Part shown: piece after piece, positions 18,679 to 37,139 of the stretch
How positions within the stretch are numbered: position 1 is the stretch's first letter
Layout: each line of letters starts with the position of its first letter
Source of the DNA: Nanoarchaeota archaeon SCGC AAA011-G17
GTDB lineage: Archaea; Nanobdellota; Nanobdellia; SCGC-AAA011-G17
Assembly: GCA_000402515.1 (NCBI GenBank)
Contig: AQRL01000036.1
Location: forward strand, 4,871-68,870
Direction of reading: 5' to 3'
DNA: 64,000 nucleotides
Notes under the pieces: model-generated
What the model was told of the DNA's origin: nothing
Database searches by the model: none
The model's input: only the letters and a program-made list of their open reading frames with translations
Made by a program: the position numbers and the translations under genes

Positions 18679-18766
18679 TCTTATTATAAGAAAGTAAGAT
18701 TAACTTATTTATAAACTTTTCTGTTTGGATAGTTTTTTAAAAGCAGATTTCTTTTATTTTTATGTG

Positions 18767-18841
18767 GGCTTGTAGCTCAGCTTGGATAGAGCACCACACT
18801 CCTAATGTGGGGGTCGAGGGTTCGAATCCCTCCAGAGGCTT
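18767..18841 (+). tRNA. tRNA-Arg(CCU)-like partial duplicate with non-pairing acceptor stem (pseudo-tRNA or att remnant)
   Basis: 60 nt (18773-18832) identical to tRNA at 20708-20782, but 5' GGGCTTG cannot pair with 3' CAGAGGC. Confidence 0.5.
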
Positions 18842-18985
18842 TAGATTATAGAAGATTTTATTGTAAAGCCATTTAATGCCTCTAAAATTGAAGAGACTAT
18901 GAAAAAGATTTTGAAGTAGATAACTTAATTATTAGTTTTATTAAGAGAACGAAAGATTTAAATATAAGTTCTATTTAAAATACTT

Positions 18986-20248
18986 ATGTCAAATATAATT
19001 GATACTATAAAATTACTCAATCCTTGGTGGGAAGATGAAAGAGTTAGCGAGGAGCTTGCCAAACAGTATAAAAGAAGCTTTTTTGATAAAATACAAGAAT
19101 TTAAGAAATATAAGCAAATAATTATTCTTACAGGATTAAGGAGAGTTGGAAAAACCACCCTTATCTATCAAACAGTAAAAGAGCTGCTTAATGGAACTGA
19201 CTCAAAAAGAATTTTTTATTTTAGTTTTGACAAGGAGGTTGATGATTTAGTAGAACTTTTTGAAAATTACAAAGAGCTAACGGGAATAAACTACAAAAAA
19301 GAAAAAATTTTTGTTTTTTTTGATGAAATAACCCGATTTAAAAAATGGGCTATTGAACTGAAATTAATTTATGACTCCTGTCCTAATATAAAATTTTGTA
19401 TTTCATCGTCAAGCAGCATTAATTTGGAAGAAGATGCTATAAAAAATCTTGCGGGGAGATATTTCCTAATTAATATAAGCCCTTTGAGCTTTAAAGAATT
19501 TTTAGAATTAAGGGGTAAGGAAAAAATGATTAAAAATTATAGGCTCTACTCAAGGGAAATAAAAAAAGAGTTTTTTTCTTATTTATTGAGGAGCTTTCCA
19601 GAAACAGTAAATTGGGATAATGAACTAGTTATCAAGGATTATCTTAGAACAACAATTATAGATAAGATAATTAAATCAGATCTTCCAGAAAGATTCAACA
19701 ATATTAATAAAGAATTACTGTATAATCTCCTAGAATTATTTTATAAGGAGCCAGGATTTTATCTTGATTATGATAATTTATCAAAAAATTTAAGGATAAG
19801 TAAGAACACACTATACACTCACATTTTCTATCTTGAATTCTGCTATCTAATAAGAATTGTGAAAAATTTCAGGCCCAGCACACTCTCAACAAGCAGAAAG
19901 CTACAAAGAGTTTATCCTTATTGGTGGAATTTGGTATATTGCTATGGAGAAAATAATGACAAAATTTTAGAGTCTTTTGTCTTAAGCATAATAGACGGAA
20001 AGTATTATTGGAGGAATTTAGAAAAAGAAATTGATTTCTTAAAAATTGAAGGCAGGAATATTCTGCCTATTGAAGTTAAAAACAGAGAAAGAGTTGAAGA
20101 GCGAGATTTGAATACATTAAAATTATTTATGAGCAAGTATAAATTAAAAAAATCTCTTCTTTTATATCTTGGAGATGAAAAAATCAGAGATTATGATAGT
20201 GGAAAGATTGAATTTATTCCATTCTGGAAATGGCTCTTAACAGAATAA
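18986..20248 (+). CDS. AAA+ ATPase with DUF4143 C-terminal domain (COG1373 family)
   Basis: Walker A LTGLRRVGKTT, Walker B FFDEI, DUF4143-like C-terminal region. Confidence 0.65.
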   Translation: MSNIIDTIKLLNPWWEDERVSEELAKQYKRSFFDKIQEFKKYKQIIILTGLRRVGKTTLIYQTVKELLNGTDSKRIFYFSFDKEVDDLVELFENYKELTGINYKKEKIFVFFDEITRFKKWAIELKLIYDSCPNIKFCISSSSSINLEEDAIKNLAGRYFLINISPLSFKEFLELRGKEKMIKNYRLYSREIKKEFFSYLLRSFPETVNWDNELVIKDYLRTTIIDKIIKSDLPERFNNINKELLYNLLELFYKEPGFYLDYDNLSKNLRISKNTLYTHIFYLEFCYLIRIVKNFRPSTLSTSRKLQRVYPYWWNLVYCYGENNDKILESFVLSIIDGKYYWRNLEKEIDFLKIEGRNILPIEVKNRERVEERDLNTLKLFMSKYKLKKSLLLYLGDEKIRDYDSGKIEFIPFWKWLLTE

Positions 20249-20707: not shown

Positions 20708-20782
20708 GCCCGGGTAGCTCAGCTTGGATAGAGCACCACACTCCTAATGTGGGGGTCGAGGGTTCGAATCCCTTCTCGGGCG
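20708..20782 (+). tRNA. tRNA-Arg (anticodon CCU)
   Basis: Acceptor GCCCGGG/CTCGGGC (one G-U), D-arm GCTC-AGCTTGGATA-GAGC, anticodon arm CCACA-CTCCTAA-TGTGG, T-arm GAGGG-TTCGAAT-CCCTT; 75 nt. Confidence 0.85.
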
Positions 20783-20785
20783 CTT

Positions 20786-30764: not shown

Positions 30765-32075
30765 TTAGTATCCCTTTGGCACTAAATGATAAATTGTTCC
30801 TATGTTATCTTTATCCAACTGTGTGAAGTCTTTTGCTATCTGAGAATCATGATATAGTGTTGCAGCTGAATAAGCTGGATTAAAAGTGTCTGACAAATTC
30901 ATATGTGATTGAGAAGCCTCTTCCCTGTATATCCCCTTGCTGTTATCAGTATCACTAAACATATCTAAGTACCATATTCTTGCCCCTGTAACTGTATTTG
31001 TATTCCAATCTACATAAACCTCATATCTTGCCAATGCACCCGAAGGAATATTTGGATTCCCTATTGGAACAAAATAATGCTTGACATTTGCCTGCAGAGA
31101 ATCATTTACTATTTCTGGCTTTATTTCTGACTGGAAATTAACATAATCTTCAGTTATTACTTTTATTAACGCAGGTTTAGCTTGAGATGTGTTTGCATAT
31201 GGATTTAAAGCATTATTCTCCTGTATCCAATCCTTTGGTGTTGTTTCCCATTTTGCTACTGGAACATTCCCCTCATTATACCCTTTTTTCAAGACCTGAT
31301 AAAAAAATTCAATATCAATGTCTTTATTCAAAATAACTCCATATTTATTTAGATTTGAATTAACTTTTGTATCAAAGTAATACCATACAACATAAGGGTT
31401 CCTATCTTCAAAAAATGGATATTTCCAATAGCCATCTGCATCAACACACATCTCATAATCTCCAGGCAATAAATAAACTGAATAATTTCCCTGGGCATCT
31501 GCTGTATCTGCCTTTACCAGATTCCAATTCTTGTCTTTAAAGGAAACAACTGCATTTGGGACTGTAGAGTATTCCGGATTTCCTGCATGTATTCCAAGAA
31601 CTTTTCCAGAAACCTTGTATTTCCCGTAATTTCCTCCAAGAACCTGCAGTAATGTAATCAAGTCAAAGATGTCTGTTTTGCTGTTATTATTGACATCCCC
31701 GGATAGTGCAGGATAGCTCTCTGGATGACCAAGGATTTTAAGCAATTCCAATAAGTCAAAGATATTTGTTTTTCCATCATTATTAACATCAGAATTGGGT
31801 GTTTCTGAGGCTAACTGCGCTAGAGAAAGTGCCTTCTGCTTTCCACTATCATAGGGGGCTATTGCCTCTGCTTCTGAAAGCATTTCCTCCAGTGAGTAAT
31901 TTCCCGACTGCACTAATGGCTCGTATTTCTGTGAAAACTGCTCAACTGTCTGTACAGGCTCTTCATATTTAGGGGAGGTAATGTCTCGTGAGCAGGCTAC
32001 TGGGAGGGATATAGAACCAGCTAATAAATAAGGCGCTATCTTCCTTCTTAGTTTAGTTATTAAGCCCTCTTTCAT
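30765..32075 (-). CDS. Secreted protein containing a dockerin type-I repeat pair
   Basis: DVNNDGKTNIFDLLELLKILG and DVNNNSKTDIFDLITLLQVLGG match the dockerin Ca-binding repeat. Confidence 0.6.
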   Translation of the reverse strand: MKEGLITKLRRKIAPYLLAGSISLPVACSRDITSPKYEEPVQTVEQFSQKYEPLVQSGNYSLEEMLSEAEAIAPYDSGKQKALSLAQLASETPNSDVNNDGKTNIFDLLELLKILGHPESYPALSGDVNNNSKTDIFDLITLLQVLGGNYGKYKVSGKVLGIHAGNPEYSTVPNAVVSFKDKNWNLVKADTADAQGNYSVYLLPGDYEMCVDADGYWKYPFFEDRNPYVVWYYFDTKVNSNLNKYGVILNKDIDIEFFYQVLKKGYNEGNVPVAKWETTPKDWIQENNALNPYANTSQAKPALIKVITEDYVNFQSEIKPEIVNDSLQANVKHYFVPIGNPNIPSGALARYEVYVDWNTNTVTGARIWYLDMFSDTDNSKGIYREEASQSHMNLSDTFNPAYSAATLYHDSQIAKDFTQLDKDNIGTIYHLVPKGY

Positions 32076-32125
32076 AGCTTTTTACAGTGTTTTTAGAGTA
32101 TTTAAATATTATGGTTTGTTACTAC
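32052..32125. repeat. ~73-bp direct repeat (copy 1) covering the start codon/promoter of gene 30765-32075; copy 2 at 33713-33785
   Basis: tttagttattaagccctctttcatagctttttacagtgttttt...atttaaatattatggtt...gttactac shared, ~90% identity. Confidence 0.8.
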
Positions 32126-32209
32126 TTAAATAGAATAAATTAAGGAAGAAGAAAGATTTATATAGTATAATCAATTAACTAATAGTATCAAATTTGATAA
32201 TATAGGTTT

Positions 32210-32923
32210 ATGAAAAGTATAATATTGTTAAAGGAACTTGAAAAATATAAAGTATTTAATAATAAGGTAGTTAGAGACATAATAAAAAAAGATCATAACT
32301 ATACTAGGCTGCTTATATATCGGCTTAAAAAGAGCAACTTAATTATAGAAATAGAGAAAAACAAATACACAGTACACGAAGATCCATTAATTATAGCAGA
32401 TAGTATGGTGTGGCCATCTTACCTTTCCTGCTGGACTGCTTTGAGATTTCATAACTTAACAGAACAGCTTCCAAATACAATCTTTGTTATAACAACAAGG
32501 TCTAGAAAAAACAATAAAATAGTATTTAATAATAATAAAATCATTTTTATAAAAGTAAAACAAAAATATTTTTTTGGGTATAATAAAGAAAATTACAGGG
32601 GTTATGATACATTTATAGCTGACCCAGAAAAAGCCATAATAGATTCAGCATTATTTAAGAAGATATCTTTATCTGAGTTATACACCATTATTAAAAATAA
32701 TTTAAATTCAATAAATGCTGCTTTGTTTATTGATTATTTATTAAGAATAAAAAATAAAACCCTGATAAAAAGATTTGGAATTTTATTTGATAAGCTTAGA
32801 TTAGACTTTTATGACAAATTAAAATCCTTTATTAATAATAAATATATTATATTGGATTATGCATTGCCCAAGAATAAAAACAAAAACATGAAATGGAAGG
32901 TAATTGAAAATGTTAGATATTAA
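32210..32923 (+). CDS. abiEi: AbiEi-family antitoxin/transcriptional regulator
   Basis: Upstream partner of AbiEii with 20-nt overlap; C-terminal domain similar to AbiEi. Confidence 0.6.
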   Translation: MKSIILLKELEKYKVFNNKVVRDIIKKDHNYTRLLIYRLKKSNLIIEIEKNKYTVHEDPLIIADSMVWPSYLSCWTALRFHNLTEQLPNTIFVITTRSRKNNKIVFNNNKIIFIKVKQKYFFGYNKENYRGYDTFIADPEKAIIDSALFKKISLSELYTIIKNNLNSINAALFIDYLLRIKNKTLIKRFGILFDKLRLDFYDKLKSFINNKYIILDYALPKNKNKNMKWKVIENVRY

Positions 32924-33680
32924 TGAACTAAAGAGAATTTCTGAGCTAAAAAGAATTTCATTGATAAATACAGAAAAAGATTATATCCAGGATATTATTT
33001 TATTCAGCCTTTATTCTAATATCGGAAGAGAATTTATATTTAAGGGAGGAACTTGCCTTTATAAGGTGTATAAGTTAAATAGATTTAGTGAAGATTTAGA
33101 TTTTACACTAATAAAAAATGCAGATACCAAAAATATTTTTAATAAATTAATTTATGATTTAAAACTTCTTAATATTAATGGAAATATTAAAGAGATTAAA
33201 GAATATAAAAATGAAATTAATGTGAGATTAATCTTCAATGGCCCCCTCTACAGGGGAAGAAAGGAAGAGCAGTGTTTTATTCCTATAAATATAAGCCTAA
33301 AAGAAAAAGTTCTTATAGAACCAAAAAATGAAATGATAATTTCTATGTACAAAGAAATTCCAAATTTTGAAATTTTCATTATGGATGAACAAGAAATACT
33401 GGCAGAAAAATTCAGAGCTATATTAAGCAGGGAAAAACCAAGAGATATTTATGATGCATGGTTCTTATTAATAAAGAAAAATATAAGCCCCGATATAAAG
33501 ATAATCAATAAAAAGTTATCTCTATATAATCTTAAATTTAACTTGAATAAATTTATAGATAGCGTTGAAAAAAAGAGAGGCTTATGGAATTTAGATCTTA
33601 AAAATTTAATTATAGGAGAGCTTCCTGATTTTGATGAAATTAAGAAAGAAATTATTTCTAAATTAAAAGAAAATCATTAA
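32904..33680 (+). CDS. abiEii: AbiEii/AbiGii nucleotidyltransferase toxin (DUF1814)
   Basis: FKGGTCLYKVYKLNRFSEDLDFT matches the KGGTAL...RFSEDLDF nucleotidyltransferase signature. Confidence 0.8.
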   Translation: MKMLDINELKRISELKRISLINTEKDYIQDIILFSLYSNIGREFIFKGGTCLYKVYKLNRFSEDLDFTLIKNADTKNIFNKLIYDLKLLNINGNIKEIKEYKNEINVRLIFNGPLYRGRKEEQCFIPINISLKEKVLIEPKNEMIISMYKEIPNFEIFIMDEQEILAEKFRAILSREKPRDIYDAWFLLIKKNISPDIKIINKKLSLYNLKFNLNKFIDSVEKKRGLWNLDLKNLIIGELPDFDEIKKEIISKLKENH

Positions 33681-33712
33681 AATTAGCTTGCATTTTTTAG
33701 TTTCTTTCCTAA

Positions 33713-33785
33713 TTTAGTTATTAAGCCCTCTTTCATAGCTTTTTACAGTGTTTTTCAACTATTTAAATATTATGGTTGTTACTAC
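33713..33785. repeat. ~73-bp direct repeat (copy 2)
   Basis: See 32052-32125. Confidence 0.8.
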
Positions 33786-33846
33786 TAATAGTTAATGAAT
33801 AAAGGAAAGAGAAAGGTTTAAATAACAAAAGTAATAAATAATTTTT

Positions 33847-34056
33847 ATGACAGAAACAATAACAATGCCAAGAGGAGAATTTAAGAAATTAATTTCTGAT
33901 GTAGAAATAGTCATAAACGATGTAGAATCAATTCTCTCTAGTGAAGACAAACTTACTAAAAAAAGGATTGATGATATAGAATCCGGAAAAGTAAAGGGTA
34001 AAACTGAAAAAGAATTAGATGAGTATCTTAAGAATAGAGGGATAAGAGTTGGCTAA
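33847..34056 (+). CDS. Small antitoxin-like protein (69 aa)
   Basis: Short charged ORF immediately followed by a RelE-like remnant. Confidence 0.35.
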   Translation: MTETITMPRGEFKKLISDVEIVINDVESILSSEDKLTKKRIDDIESGKVKGKTEKELDEYLKNRGIRVG

Positions 34057-34185
34057 TTGGGAGATAAAAGAGCACCCAGATTTCTTTAAGGACTTAGACA
34101 GATTAAATAAAAGTGAATTAGAAATATTTTATAAAAAGAAAGAAAAAATCAAGAAAAATCCAGACTGGGACAAAAGTTAATAAAA
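34057..34185 (+). pseudogene. RelE/ParE-like toxin remnant (no ATG; stops after ~42 codons)
   Basis: Hand translation WEIKEHPDFFKDLDRLNKSELEIFYKKKEKIKKNPDWDKS* resembles the RelE N-terminus (W.I.F...F.KDLKKL...NP..G). Confidence 0.4.
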
Positions 34186-34355
34186 TTCTTACAATAGAAG
34201 AAAGGTTCAATAAGGTAGAGAATGAGCATAATCTTGTTATGAATAGCAAACTAAAACTCAAAAATAGATAATTCTTGTAAATTTATTTGAATTACATATT
34301 AAAACAATTCTGACCAAAACATTTAAAAGTAAATTTTCTAAGAATCTATTAGTAT

Positions 34356-34378
34356 GCGTCAGTAGTCTAATGGTTAGG
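34356..34378 (+). tRNA. tRNA 5' fragment (acceptor+D-arm, GCGTCAG-TA-GTCTAATGGTTAGG) with no cognate 3' half nearby
   Basis: 19/23 identity to the 5' end of the tRNA-Gly at 35298; possible split-tRNA half or integration remnant. Confidence 0.4.
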
Positions 34379-34421
34379 TAAAATAGATAAACTTTTATAC
34401 TCATTAATCTTATTTTTATTA

Positions 34422-35264
34422 ATGAAATATCTGGATTTTAGTAAAAAAGACCAAATTTCATTTATGAGGTTAGTTAAAGAACGAAGTAATCTTAAATGGG
34501 AAAAAATTGCACATTTTCTTGGTATCCATAGAAGTATGATTTTTTTCTATTTGAATGGTAAATCAAAGATTCCATATGAAAATTATAAAAAATTATGTAG
34601 TTTAGCAAAAATAAAACAATCACACAAATCATATGTTTTTATAAAAAATAAAATACAACCAATAAATAAAATTAATATGATTGATAATAATCTTGCTGAA
34701 TTATTAGGTATTCTTGCAGGAGATGGTCATATTTCCAATATAAATTATGAAGTTTGTGTTAGTGGGCATATGATTCTAGATAAAGAATATATCAACAAAA
34801 ATGTAGTTTTCCTTTTTGAAAAGTTATTTGGTCTTGACTCTAAATTAAAAATATACAAACCATATACCCATCTTAGATGCTGTGTTAATTCAAAATTACT
34901 CATAGAATATTTATCAAAAGAATTTAATTTACCAGTTGGAAAAAAGAAGGGGAATCTACATATTCCCAAACAAATAATTGAAGATAAATTACTATTAAAA
35001 TATTATATACGTGGTCTTTTTGATACTGATGGTAGTGTATATTTTAGACGCAAAAAAGACATTGTTGTATCAATAATTAGTGGAGATTTATTATTTTTGA
35101 ATGAGGTAAAAAATGCATTAAAAATTTTAGGATATAATCCATGCGTAAGTGGAAAAAACCTTTATCTTTATAAAAAAGAAGAGGTAAAAAGATTTTTTTC
35201 TGAAATTAATCCTATAAATAAAAAACATTTGGATAGATATTCTAATTTTTTGAAACTGCGTTAA
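34422..35264 (+). CDS. Free-standing LAGLIDADG homing endonuclease
   Basis: Two LAGLIDADG motifs: LAELLGILAGDGHIS and LKYYIRGLFDTDGSV. Confidence 0.8.
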   Translation: MKYLDFSKKDQISFMRLVKERSNLKWEKIAHFLGIHRSMIFFYLNGKSKIPYENYKKLCSLAKIKQSHKSYVFIKNKIQPINKINMIDNNLAELLGILAGDGHISNINYEVCVSGHMILDKEYINKNVVFLFEKLFGLDSKLKIYKPYTHLRCCVNSKLLIEYLSKEFNLPVGKKKGNLHIPKQIIEDKLLLKYYIRGLFDTDGSVYFRRKKDIVVSIISGDLLFLNEVKNALKILGYNPCVSGKNLYLYKKEEVKRFFSEINPINKKHLDRYSNFLKLR

Positions 35265-35297
35265 ATTTATAAACATATTTTTCACTTAAATAATCAA

Positions 35298-35420
35298 GCG
35301 CTGGTAGTCTAATGGCTAGGAATCCTTTGTGGATTTCACAGGGATTAGCAAATAGGGGCCTTCCAAGCCTCTGATCCGGGAGATGCTCTGCATCCGGAAA
35401 TTCGAGTCCCGGCCAGCGCA
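35298..35420 (+). tRNA. tRNA-Gly (anticodon UCC) with two putative non-canonical introns (~32 nt near position 26/27; 20 nt between positions 53/54 in the T-arm)
   Basis: Acceptor GCGCTGG/CCAGCGC; anticodon arm GGGGC-CTTCCAA-GCCTC (35355-35371); variable TGAT; T-stem CCGGG (35376-35380) | agatgctctgcatccggaaa | TTCGAGT-CCCGG; mature length 71 nt. Confidence 0.6.
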
Positions 35421-35466
35421 TTTTCTCCAAAAGCCTTTTAAACTTAAAACAATCTTTCTGATATAT

Positions 35467-36111
35467 ATGAAGAAACAAACAATTTTGGTTTGTGTATCGC
35501 ATTCTGATGATCAAGTCATTGGGATGGGGAGTTCTATCGCAAAATTTGCAAGCGAGGGAAAGGATGTAATTGTAGTTATTTTCTCTTATGGGGCAGAGTC
35601 AGTGCCATGGATGAAAGAGAAGCATATTATAGAAACGAGAGTCAAGGAGTCAATGAAAATAGATAAATTCCTTGGGGCAAAGAAAACAATATTTCTAGGG
35701 TTATCTGACAAGAATATGGAAGAGAAGATAAAAAAATTCAAAACAGAGAAAAAACTGGAATTAATAATAAGCAAATACAATCCGGAAAAGATATTTACGC
35801 ATGCGCTTGACCCGCATCCAAACCACAGAATTGTACATAAAACTGTGCTTAAGGTCCTTGATTCAATGAAAAAGAATATTCCAGTTTACACCTTTGATAT
35901 ATGGAAGATGTTTGACACAAAAGAGCAGAAAGCAAGAATATATATTGACATAACAGAGACATTCAGCAAGAAGATAAAGGCAATGATGATGTTCAAATCA
36001 CAGATGTATTTCTCGATTTATCCCTTATTACCTTCTGTCTATTTAAAGGCTTTTTTGAACGGGGTGCATATAAAAACAAGATATGCTGAGATGTTTTACA
36101 AAGAAAGATGA
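35467..36111 (+). CDS. PIG-L/LmbE family N-acetylglucosaminyl deacetylase
   Basis: Start moved to MKKQTIL (the long ORF start lies inside the tRNA); VSHSDDQVIGMG matches the PIG-L AHPDDE-type motif. Confidence 0.6.
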   Translation: MKKQTILVCVSHSDDQVIGMGSSIAKFASEGKDVIVVIFSYGAESVPWMKEKHIIETRVKESMKIDKFLGAKKTIFLGLSDKNMEEKIKKFKTEKKLELIISKYNPEKIFTHALDPHPNHRIVHKTVLKVLDSMKKNIPVYTFDIWKMFDTKEQKARIYIDITETFSKKIKAMMMFKSQMYFSIYPLLPSVYLKAFLNGVHIKTRYAEMFYKER

Positions 36112-37139
36112 GAGTATTATTCACAATAACAGGAATAGGATTAGGGCATGCTACAAGGGAGTATGCAATAATAAAGAAATTAAACTGCGATGTGAGAATA
36201 GGCACTTATCTAAGCGCGTATGATTTTTTCAAGGATAAATACGAAACTTTCAAGATTTCGTATATAAAATTCCCTGACAACAAATTCAGGGTTTCTTTTT
36301 ATAAGATAATCATGTATAATTTGTTAGCTCCTTTGAATCTTTATTTAGCTTATTTAAGAATAAAAAAAGAGGTAAAAGAGTTTAATCCTGACCTGATAAT
36401 AAGCGATTCTGAATTAGTAACAGGCTATGCTTCCAAGAGGCTAAAAAAACCTGTAATAGGGATACACAACCATAATCTAGAGAGGATAAAAAATATTGAA
36501 AAATCAAAAGACAGGAATTTAAGATTAGAGGCAGGGTATCTGTACAAGCTTGTTGAGGCTGGGAACAAAAACTGCTCAATGATTATAGTGCCTGAATTAT
36601 TGGGAGGAAAAAGAGACGGGAAGATAAGATATATTGACCCTGTTATTAATGAGAGCAAAAAAACAATAAAAAATAATGCAATCCTGATAATGCTCGGAGG
36701 AAGCAGATTTACACACCCTTTTATTGAAGGAATAATTCCTTTCTTAAAAAAACAAAAAGAGGAATTTATCATCTTTGGGTATAAGGATTTCAAAGAGGGG
36801 AATATTGTTTCTTATAAATTTAATCCTGAATTTATAAAATATTTAAAAAACTGCAAGGGGCTGATTACATTTGCAGGCTATTCAGCTTTATCTGAGGCTC
36901 TTTTTTATAAGGTTCCTTCACTAGTATTTTCAATTCCGGGGCATCTGGAGCAGTACATCAATATCAATACTGTCTCCAAAATATTCATGACTGATGTTGA
37001 CAGCAAGAATCCGGAAGAGAGCATTTCAAGATTTTTAAATGGCATTCCAGAACAAAGGACAAGGTTAAAGAAATTAAAAATTAAGAATGGATTAGACGAG
37101 GCTGTTAGGATAATTAAAAATGAAGTTGCCAAGAGTTGA
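36108..37139 (+). CDS. GT-B glycosyltransferase (MurG/GT28-like)
   Basis: N-terminal TGIGLGHATRE (G-rich loop) and C-terminal GGS...G pattern; overlaps the PIG-L stop. Confidence 0.5.
   Translation: MRVLFTITGIGLGHATREYAIIKKLNCDVRIGTYLSAYDFFKDKYETFKISYIKFPDNKFRVSFYKIIMYNLLAPLNLYLAYLRIKKEVKEFNPDLIISDSELVTGYASKRLKKPVIGIHNHNLERIKNIEKSKDRNLRLEAGYLYKLVEAGNKNCSMIIVPELLGGKRDGKIRYIDPVINESKKTIKNNAILIMLGGSRFTHPFIEGIIPFLKKQKEEFIIFGYKDFKEGNIVSYKFNPEFIKYLKNCKGLITFAGYSALSEALFYKVPSLVFSIPGHLEQYININTVSKIFMTDVDSKNPEESISRFLNGIPEQRTRLKKLKIKNGLDEAVRIIKNEVAKS

Follow-up and report, generated by a model that had tools for sequence, protein, structure and literature searches.

We report that a transfer RNA (tRNA) gene of the Nanoarchaeota archaeon SCGC AAA011-G17, tRNA-Gly(UCC), appears to have been interrupted by 973 nucleotides (nt) that carry a LAGLIDADG gene, and we consider it likely that the locus is a homing-endonuclease cassette that targets tRNA genes. 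The DNA studied was a 64-kb stretch from this archaeon (hereafter the window, whose positions are the coordinates used throughout; features lie on the forward (+) strand unless stated otherwise), and the labels L002 to L134 denote contigs or loci of relatives with which it was compared. The locus forms a before-and-after pair, the intron-less tRNA-Gly gene of a relative against the two-intron gene of the window, in which the two-intron state would have been reached in the same step as the arrival of the LAGLIDADG gene, with one intron lying exactly at the break point. It offers a concrete potential route to the gain of non-canonical tRNA introns; how archaeal tRNA introns transpose was described as unknown in a 2014 review (PMC4090602).

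Empty and occupied alleles of the tRNA-Gly(UCC) gene

The comparison that carries this conclusion is with L090, a metagenome contig (read on its minus strand) that was recovered by scanning metagenome contigs with the 23-mer described below. L090 holds an uninterrupted, intron-less tRNA-Gly(UCC) gene of 71 nt (GCGTCAGTAGTCTAATGGCTAGGATAGGGGCCTTCCAAGCCTCTGATCTGGGTCCGACTCCCAGCTGACGCA, also given as GTAGTCTAATGGCTAGGATAGGGGCCTTCCAAGCC) with its acceptor strands GCGTCAG/CTGACGC in one piece, and its flanks are those of the window, namely a 46-nt upstream segment with a TATA-like box and, downstream, the spacer and the PIG-L and glycosyltransferase genes. By blastn, L090 388-456 aligns with window 34310-34378 (94% identity), L090 457-485 with 35352-35380 (97%) and L090 502-1358 with 35417-36273 (87.6%). 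Three differences separate the two alleles: the 973-nt insertion (34379..35351), which lies exactly between tRNA nt 23 and 24, a 20-nt second intron, and another T-arm and 3′ acceptor strand. A second empty allele is present at the orthologous locus in L132-134, where the tRNA-Gly(UCC) gene is again intron-less, with the acceptor GCGCCGG, and the PIG-L gene is 73% identical to that of the window, whereas L130/L131, with a PIG-L gene that is 99% identical, are occupied like the window; in all of L130-L134 the PIG-L ortholog directly follows tRNA-Gly. The Rfam tRNA model scores the empty-site tRNAs at 60.7 bits (L090) and 67.8 bits (L132-134), whereas the occupied alleles go undetected.

On these alignments, relatives still have the intact ancestral form of the tRNA-Gly(UCC) gene, without introns, and in the window that gene is interrupted by the 973 nt. 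The insertion opens with 14 nt and a TATA-like box, followed by the LAGLIDADG open reading frame (ORF), another TATA-like box, a newly introduced copy of tRNA nt 1-23 with an acceptor strand that fits the new 3′ strand, and finally a 31-nt intron; the ORF stop and the start of the tRNA are 33 nt apart. An endonuclease-mediated invasion that duplicated the tRNA 5′ end was one of the possibilities raised by the initial annotation of this DNA, and it gains support from L090 and L132-134, in which the same promoter and PIG-L gene flank an uninterrupted intron-less tRNA-Gly(UCC) gene.

The closest relative is L002/L003, whose LAGLIDADG protein is 89% identical to that of the window. The shared DNA is confined to 34364-35421/4 (90.7% identity), which starts at nt 9 of the 5′ remnant described below and reaches the 3′ end of the tRNA, the remnant having lost its acceptor part to a deletion, together with 16 nt of the old promoter; TTTAAAAGTAAATTTT is kept there. 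We do not claim L002/L003 as an independent insertion, as these 16 nt are common to both and the two may derive from the same event, after which the flanks were rearranged.

Could the interrupted state be the older one? A tandem partial duplication might have occurred in a DPANN ancestor, with the alleles of L090 and L132 being secondary losses, and the pairing of the ORF with tRNA-Gly, which extends over Nano-, Woese-, Pace- and Iainarchaeota at 30-60% protein identity, does look old. Such a history would, however, need two losses, each of which removed the ORF and both introns precisely and restored a matching acceptor and the other T-arm. Nor does it sit well with the remnant in the window, which carries the acceptor of the L090 allele and not that of its own tRNA, or with the occupied loci, among which the flanking genes differ while the unit of ORF and tRNA is constant. 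We regard this ancient vertical arrangement as highly improbable.

The two-intron tRNA gene

The gene that now appears to be the working one is composed of a new exon 1, an intron, exon 2, a 20-nt intron and exon 3. Exon 1 (35298..35320, nt 1-23) has the new acceptor strand GCGCTGG, which pairs 7/7 with 35413-35419 (CCAGCGC). Intron 1 (35321..35351, 31 nt) is at standard position 23/24, the very point at which the old gene is broken. Exon 2 (35352..35380, nt 24-53) takes in the last part of the D-stem, the UCC-bearing anticodon arm, the variable loop and the 5′ strand of the T-stem, and 28/29 of its nt are those of nt 24-52 of the L090 tRNA. Intron 2 (35381..35400, 20 nt) is at standard position 53/54 and is identical in L002/L003 and L130/L131. 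Exon 3 (35401..35420) holds the T-loop, the 3′ T-stem, the 3′ acceptor strand CCAGCGC and the discriminator A; because its T-arm and acceptor are unlike those of the empty-site alleles, exon 3 is a part that came with the cassette or co-evolved with it. A TATA-like box (TTTATAAA, 35266..35273), read in the sequence 25-32 nt before the new tRNA, is a candidate promoter element, and L008/L009 have a comparable box (CTTTATAAATG) in the gap that separates the ORF stop from the tRNA.

The splice sites were defined by their bulge-helix-bulge (BHB) motifs. In such a motif a 4-bp helix lies between two 3-nt bulges on opposite strands and cutting occurs after the second bulge nucleotide, and on this geometry we searched all possible exon ends of the 123-nt pre-tRNA (35298-35420) for the strict hBHBh′ form with flanking helices of at least 2 bp. 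The search, which the initial annotation had proposed as a check, gave exactly two solutions, and these are the two introns. For intron 1 the central helix is GCTA/TAGC, the bulges are GGA and AAA, and the inner and outer helices have 6 and 2 bp; for intron 2 they are TCCG/CGGA, GGA and AAT, and 5 and 3 bp. That exon 1 has exactly 23 nt, the length of the upstream fragment, follows from the BHB-defined splice sites. The central helix GCTA/TAGC of intron 1 is found in the window, L002 and L004, and L011 has the compensatory GTTA/TAAC, a single double change that lends modest compensatory evidence to the helix. Splicing of both introns by host enzymes is predicted on these grounds. DPANN archaea reportedly show raised levels of tRNA gene disruption and possess endonucleases associated with it (PMC5829648). 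An earlier approach, in which ARAGORN was run on ~11,760 trial splicings, was too permissive to fix the splice sites and was replaced by the strict search.

Removal of both introns yields a canonical 72-nt tRNA-Gly(UCC), discriminator A included, with a 7/7 paired acceptor (ARAGORN on the spliced sequence), and the Gly(UCC) identity that the initial annotation had assigned to the 123-nt stretch is thereby upheld. The same annotation was right about the presence of two non-canonical introns and about the size and 53/54 position of the second, but its first intron has to be amended: it is 31 nt long, not ~32, and it lies not between the D-arm and the anticodon stem but inside the 3′ strand of the D-stem, at 23/24. 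The unspliced 35298-35420 gave no match with ARAGORN (intron options on or off) or with the Rfam tRNA model, and the intron-bearing layout explains why standard tRNA finders miss this essential tRNA. We also considered an alternative fold with the anticodon UUG in the region of the first intron, which was rejected by eye on account of U at position 37 and a cloverleaf that cannot be completed.

Other tRNA-Gly(UCC) genes have T-arm introns elsewhere. In relatives, those at L004:3858-4050 and L010:2355-2539 contain a long second intron that lies in the T-loop or next to it, away from 53/54, and measures tens of nt, its boundaries being approximate. Because these positions differ from that in the window, T-arm introns in tRNA-Gly(UCC) seem to have arisen more than once.

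The upstream 5′ remnant

Upstream of the ORF, at 34356..34378, is the 23-nt piece GCGTCAGTAGTCTAATGGTTAGG. Its 19/23 match to the downstream tRNA, reported in the initial annotation, is confirmed against tRNA nt 1-23 (35298-35320, GCGCTGGTAGTCTAATGGCTAGG), and its match to nt 1-23 of L090 is 22/23. Apart from the tRNA itself, no other site on either strand of the 64-kb window reaches 17/23 matches; when the window was shuffled 200 times, the best matches ranged from 14 to 18, the top value being attained once. The 94% identity to L090 quoted above covers this fragment together with its upstream flank, 69 nt in all. A TATA-like box (TTTAAAAG, 34322..34329) can be read 27-34 nt before the fragment, and the same box at the same spacing precedes the intact tRNA-Gly gene of L090, which points to the promoter of the resident gene. 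The acceptor strand of the fragment, GCGTCAG, is that of the L090 allele and not that of the neighbouring tRNA in the window, with whose 3′ end (CCAGCGC) it would form two adjacent mismatches. Because it carries the acceptor of the L090 allele and is mismatched with the 3′ end of its neighbour, we consider the fragment to be the orphaned 5′ end of the resident gene; on this evidence 34356-34378 is a dead remnant of the resident tRNA-Gly gene and no half of a split tRNA. The 43 nt on its 3′ side are AT-rich and contain the TATA-like box of the ORF. A candidate 4-nt repair footprint 3′ of the remnant (TAAA before ATAG) was dropped, being inconsistent across loci.

The initial annotation had also raised a split or permuted tRNA half. 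The piece would then be an expressed 5′ half, joined in trans to a 3′ half encoded elsewhere, and it does end exactly at the known splice position 23/24, has a TATA-like box at the right distance and bears an acceptor strand unlike that of the neighbouring tRNA, as would be the case for a different tRNA. However, the orthologs L090 and L132 hold the same 5′ sequence in a contiguous gene behind the same promoter, and L002/L003, the closest relative, no longer have the acceptor part of the piece. A 3′ half would end in CTGACGCA, and a search of the 64-kb window for CTGACGC returned only the opposite strand of the remnant itself. In addition, the trailer of the piece is the AT-rich promoter DNA of the ORF, with no G+C-rich splint, and in other lineages the remnants are variously intact, truncated or absent. 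We therefore give the split or permuted half next to no credence.

A more elaborate scheme makes use of the remnant as an alternative 5′ exon. In archaeal rRNA genes, BHB introns encode LAGLIDADG enzymes and form stable circles, a precedent for supposing that a transcript from the old promoter is spliced from 34378 to 35352, with a 973-nt, possibly circular, intron serving as the endonuclease mRNA while the proximal promoter gives rise to the working tRNA. Pairing between GTTA in the remnant and TAGC at the 3′ splice site is indeed possible, one of the pairs being G-U, and in L009 and L017 the acceptor of the remnant is that of the downstream tRNA. In the window, though, a BHB spanning the distance between the remnant and the 3′ splice site of intron 1 was obtained in a relaxed form only, with a 1-bp inner helix, and was set aside as indistinguishable from chance, since dozens of random solutions are at least as good. 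In the spliced product, two neighbouring acceptor positions would be mismatched; L002/L003 lack the acceptor part and their central helix is weakened; and the downstream tRNA of many family members is intron-less and so offers no 3′ splice site. The ORF, moreover, has a TATA-like box of its own. A giant intron of this kind seems to us very unlikely.

The LAGLIDADG protein

That a LAGLIDADG ORF stands between the fragment and the tRNA had been noted from the outset and is confirmed by Pfam (LAGLIDADG_3, 43.9 bits against a cut-off of 22.5). The gene (34422..35264) encodes 280 amino acids (aa) with an N-terminal helix-turn-helix (HTH), for which the Pfam match (HTH_3) is weak, and a two-motif (monomeric) LAGLIDADG domain, the motifs being LAELLGILAGDGH (with D101) and YIRGLFDTDGS (with D203). 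G100-D101-G102, D201, D203 and G204, which include both catalytic Asp residues, are invariant in 34 homologs of 36-60% identity. The AlphaFold2 model (pLDDT 94.6) has a four-helix N-terminal domain and a two-domain LAGLIDADG core with the pseudo-symmetric double alpha-beta-beta-alpha-beta-beta-alpha fold of the family. Its best matches in the PDB are 7qsu (the endonuclease domain of a V-ATPase intein; Foldseek E 5e-10), I-Tsp061I 2dch and I-DmoI 2vs7, followed, after the endonucleases, by a LAGLIDADG maturase and WhiA, and the profile matches in the PDB are likewise intein endonuclease domains, I-Tsp061I and an I-DmoI chimera. A TATA-like box (TTTTATAC, 34393..34400), read in the sequence ~25 nt before the ATG, is a putative promoter element whose closeness to the start codon suggests a leaderless mRNA; an A-rich stretch and a TATA-like box are found in the same place, 3′ of the remnant, in L009, L011, L014, L017, L019, L022 and L032.

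Is the protein a nuclease or a regulator? The JGI annotation labels its homologs WhiA. To our knowledge, WhiA lacks the catalytic Asp pair. A search for the WhiA family model among NCBIfam matches to the 280-aa protein gave none, and since the catalytic residues are kept we rejected a WhiA-type regulator; sequence and model together lead us to predict that the protein is a LAGLIDADG homing endonuclease. Close relatives of it were not found on the viral contigs searched, which returned only distant LAGLIDADG relatives.

Recurrence of the arrangement in DPANN and CPR genomes

If the LAGLIDADG gene targets tRNA genes, is its association with them found elsewhere? In a scan with one genome per species, the 32 closest genome loci were examined for tRNA-Gly, and in 18 of them tRNA-Gly (UCC; CCC in L031) begins 2-90 nt after the ORF. 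Multi-intron tRNA-Gly(UCC) genes directly follow the ORF in L004 (61% identical protein) and L008/L009 (55%). By a position-weight scan the 5′ remnant was located 56-143 nt upstream of the ATG, in complete form in six loci (the window, L009, L014, L017, L019 and L032) and as a partial D-arm remnant in L002, L010-12, L021, L022 and L028; an A-rich stretch and a TATA-like box come after each. The acceptors of the remnants are often unlike those of the adjacent tRNA; in L009 and L017 the remnant acceptor strand is that of the downstream tRNA. In L009 a 21-nt remnant of its own is accompanied by a second, nested remnant (AGTCTAATGGTTAGG) that is of the window type and unlike the L009 tRNA, and this nested copy suggests that the element carried an older remnant along.

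Introns on the D-arm side, at positions 22-25, occur in the window, L002, L011, L012, L014 and L027. An intron and the ORF are found together in the window, L002, L004, L009, L011, L012, L014 and L027, whereas in nine close relatives the ORF stands beside an intron-less tRNA-Gly. In two of the loci with an intron-less adjacent tRNA, L019 and L032, the D-arm of that tRNA is strongly unlike the remnant, a divergence that would fit immunity by change of the target.

ARAGORN was run on a wider set, 80 loci of LAGLIDADG-protein relatives, and a tRNA on the same strand lies directly downstream in 62 of them, starting 0-200 nt past the ORF, compared with 8/80 that have a tRNA on the opposite strand. 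Each protein subfamily is tied to its own tRNA species, the close relatives to Gly, those of other DPANN loci to Gln, His, Arg or Leu, and those of the candidate phyla radiation (CPR)/Patescibacteria to Ser(CGA) or Tyr. In the bacterial loci L066 and L069 a ~23-nt 5′ remnant of tRNA-Ser precedes the ATG by ~55 nt, and a complete tRNA-Ser stands where the ORF ends; the archaeal tRNA-Gln loci L058 and L071 have D-arm remnants and a TATA-like box. The same architecture beside other tRNA species in DPANN and CPR suggests that tRNA-targeting selfish elements are widespread in these reduced genomes.

This recurrence bears on whether the insertion came about by another route, such as illegitimate recombination or a decayed integrative element. 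The LAGLIDADG gene would then be a passenger, or encode a domesticated DNA-binding regulator, and would not drive the mobility. tRNA genes are general insertion hot spots; a duplicated tRNA-Arg(CCU) core flanks an ATPase gene in the same window and a G+C-poor toxin-antitoxin stretch lies just upstream; and a regulatory role would accord with the WhiA-like fold, with the JGI label and with the position of the remnant directly upstream of the ORF promoter, where a regulator could bind. Yet the 973 nt contain no integrase or transposase, and the LAGLIDADG ORF is the only protein-family match in them, no tyrosine or serine recombinase being among the matches; both catalytic Asp residues are invariant, and the WhiA family match is missing. 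The link between ORF and tRNA and the break near tRNA nt 21-25 recur across many lineages and tRNA species, which argues for sequence-specific targeting by the shared LAGLIDADG gene. In our judgment a route of this other kind is unlikely. As to a ribozyme, there was no match to Intron_gpI or any other Rfam family at E <= 10 in 34200-35600; archaeal group I introns have been reported only in rRNA genes (PMC6125680).

A further regularity concerns the neighbourhood of the unit. In L018, L019, L028 and L034 (also L017 and L021) tRNA-Leu and tRNA-Arg(CCU) lie just upstream of the LAGLIDADG-tRNA-Gly unit, which suggests an ancestral cluster of tRNA-Leu, tRNA-Arg(CCU) and tRNA-Gly(UCC) that the ORF invaded. 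The tRNA-Arg(CCU) of the window sits 14 kb from the unit.

A model of homing into tRNA-Gly genes

In the explanation that we favour, a homing-endonuclease cassette, the LAGLIDADG protein would cut intron-less tRNA-Gly(UCC) genes near nt 21-26 and the break would be repaired from an occupied allele. The D-arm segment of the remnant (AGTCTAATGGTTAGG) would act as the left homology arm and the tRNA body as the right arm, such that the gene, the new 5′ part and the introns were copied in together. The host tRNA-splicing endonuclease and ligase would excise both introns, and because of this the insertion should cost little. What, then, would protect the occupied allele from its own enzyme? The D-arm and anticodon arm of the window tRNA are those of L090 and differ by one base from those of L132, and the intron at the break point is the only interruption of the D-arm/anticodon-arm sequence in the occupied allele. 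The intron at 23/24 would split the recognition site, and it is for this reason that the occupied allele would be immune despite its wild-type D-arm and anticodon arm, an analogue of the protection seen in collaborative homing, which pairs a free-standing endonuclease gene with an ORF-less intron. The endonuclease I-TevI is known for autoregulation, and by analogy it is a possibility that the protein of the window regulates itself via the remnant, which lies just upstream of the ORF promoter.

Several points weigh against this explanation. Cleavage, splicing and promoter use are all deduced from sequence. The fold is shared with WhiA and with maturases, and on structure alone a non-nuclease role is possible. 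Viral contigs gave no close relative of the protein and hence indicate no vehicle for horizontal transfer. The left homology arm, at 15-23 nt only, is short for break repair. The direction of the change, gain and not loss, relies on parsimony and on the acceptor of the remnant. Furthermore, one and the same insertion event may underlie the window, L130/131 and perhaps L002/3, in place of repeated recent homing in this lineage. Nor is the intron indispensable to the cassette, since the downstream tRNA lacks introns in about half of the family.

It is tempting to extend the homing model to the whole set of relatives. There would then be a cross-domain class of LAGLIDADG cassettes that home into DPANN and CPR tRNA genes at the 3′ side of the D-loop, with one subfamily per tRNA species; the target would be healed with a new 5′ part, the archaeal junction would become a non-canonical, shielding BHB intron, and endonuclease-driven gene conversion would both give birth to such introns and spread them. 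We put this forward tentatively, as a possibility that we think is rather less than probable; if it is true, endonuclease-driven gene conversion would be a mechanism for the birth and spread of non-canonical archaeal tRNA introns.

Comparison with known systems

The biology of homing endonucleases is well known; what would be new here are the target, the architecture and the link to the gain of BHB introns. Our searches of the full-text literature found no paper that ties LAGLIDADG genes to archaeal tRNA BHB introns, and none that ties them to DPANN or CPR tRNA genes in this architecture. The enzymes of archaeal rRNA BHB introns, I-DmoI, I-PorI and I-Tsp061I, belong to the same family and share the two-domain monomer fold, the archaeal host, a stable-RNA gene as target and the removal of the interruption by host BHB splicing. 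Their genes, however, lie inside the intron of the rRNA gene, whereas the window gene is outside the spliced introns, upstream of the tRNA gene, comes with a duplicate 5′ part of the target and its own promoter, and encodes an extra N-terminal HTH.

Collaborative homing has precedents in F-CphI and the psbA intron of cyanophage S-PM2 and in mobE and the I-TevIII intron of T4 nrdB (PMC6083498, PMC2790892). As in those cases, the neighbour of a free-standing endonuclease gene contains an ORF-less intron at the position where alleles without the intron are broken; such an intron would shield the resident copy and be passed on along with the gene for the endonuclease. The precedents are phage group I introns in protein genes and involve other nuclease families, whereas the window has a protein-spliced BHB intron in a cellular tRNA gene and a duplicated 5′ fragment left behind, with cleavage at the intron site as a prediction. 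A second parallel comes from fungal mitochondria (e.g., Allomyces atp6), where free-standing endonuclease genes insert together with a duplicate terminal segment and the displaced end becomes a pseudogene. Those insertions resemble ours in being self-healing, the mobile segment restoring the gene terminus while the old part stays as a remnant, but they replace the 3′ ends of protein genes, whereas in the window it is 23 nt of a tRNA 5′ end that are replaced, with a splice at the RNA level at the junction.

Integrative elements and viruses of tRNA genes, such as Sulfolobus SSV (PMC4090602), also target tRNA genes, leave a partial tRNA repeat flanking the insert and keep the tRNA gene functional. 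The insert in the window differs from them in lacking an integrase, in being < 1 kb with a single LAGLIDADG gene, and in having an imperfect repeat whose differences are compensated in the 3′ strand of the new gene. Split and tri-split tRNAs (Nanoarchaeum equitans; tRNA-Gly of Caldivirga maquilingensis) provide likenesses in the free-standing 5′ piece that ends at a splice position, in the DPANN host and in tRNA-Gly itself; the piece in the window, in contrast, has neither a 3′ partner there nor a splint, is contiguous in relatives and decays in the closest of them. SegB of phage T4 is encoded by a free-standing endonuclease gene in a tRNA cluster and cuts the tRNA genes of related phages, and the likeness lies in a free-standing homing endonuclease gene that stands among tRNA genes and targets them. 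It is unlike the window protein in being a GIY-YIG enzyme of a phage, without introns or a layout of remnant plus replacement. The homing elements of T4 have been reviewed (PMC2988022).

Flanking genes and other observations

The right flank of the locus is a PIG-L family deacetylase gene (35467..36111; NCBI gene call; Pfam PIG-L, 74 bits), which has 87.6% nt identity to L090. The initial annotation had argued that the long ORF listed from 35383 starts inside the tRNA and that its true start is at 35467, and this is borne out by the public gene call, by a Pfam PIG-L match that begins at residue 7 and by the same ATG in L090 and L132. The ORFs that overlap the tRNA are this long PIG-L form (35383-36111, +) and one of 90 aa at 35242-35514 (-), and the public annotation calls a 59-aa gene opposite the tRNA strand (L001:1367-1546); all of these are probably spurious calls made because the tRNA went undetected.

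The stretch 32000-35000, which directly precedes the old tRNA-Gly promoter, has a G+C content of ~24% versus ~31% overall and contains small ORFs as well as a gene for an AbiEii toxin (32904-33680). Since L090, L132 and L002 each have different DNA there, the locus is variable on its left side. The G+C content of the window is ~30-31%, and the homologs of its genes are nearly all in DPANN archaea. The stretch is also present on NCBI contig AQYW01000079.1 (assembly GCA_000380905.1). The public NCBI contig with the ORF ends at window 33876, and the window extends beyond that point by another 33.8 kb on the upstream side, which indicates that it stems from another, longer assembly of the same or a nearly identical genome; the LAGLIDADG protein is also recorded on a second contig, of 110.8 kb.

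Another "tRNA copy, insert, tRNA" layout is present in the window, where two copies of tRNA-Arg(CCU) (18766-18842 and 20708-20783) have an identical 60-nt core. The acceptor strands of the first copy, GGGCTTG and CAGAGGC, are unpaired, and its Rfam score is 50 bits versus 64 for the other. The two flank a gene for a 420-aa AAA_14/DUF4143 ATPase (18986-20248) and a 124-aa ORF, with no LAGLIDADG gene between them. Finally, on the other metagenome contig matched by the 23-mer, L089 (1019-1500), from an unrelated G+C-rich archaeon, a tRNA-Gly(GCC) with a canonical intron begins with the same 23-mer and is uninformative for the locus. This tRNA and the next one on that contig each have their last ~16 nt duplicated ~100 nt downstream (AATCCCGGCTGACGCA; ATCCCCCCGGGCCCA), and these duplicates look like 3′ remnants of insertions at the other end of the tRNA gene.

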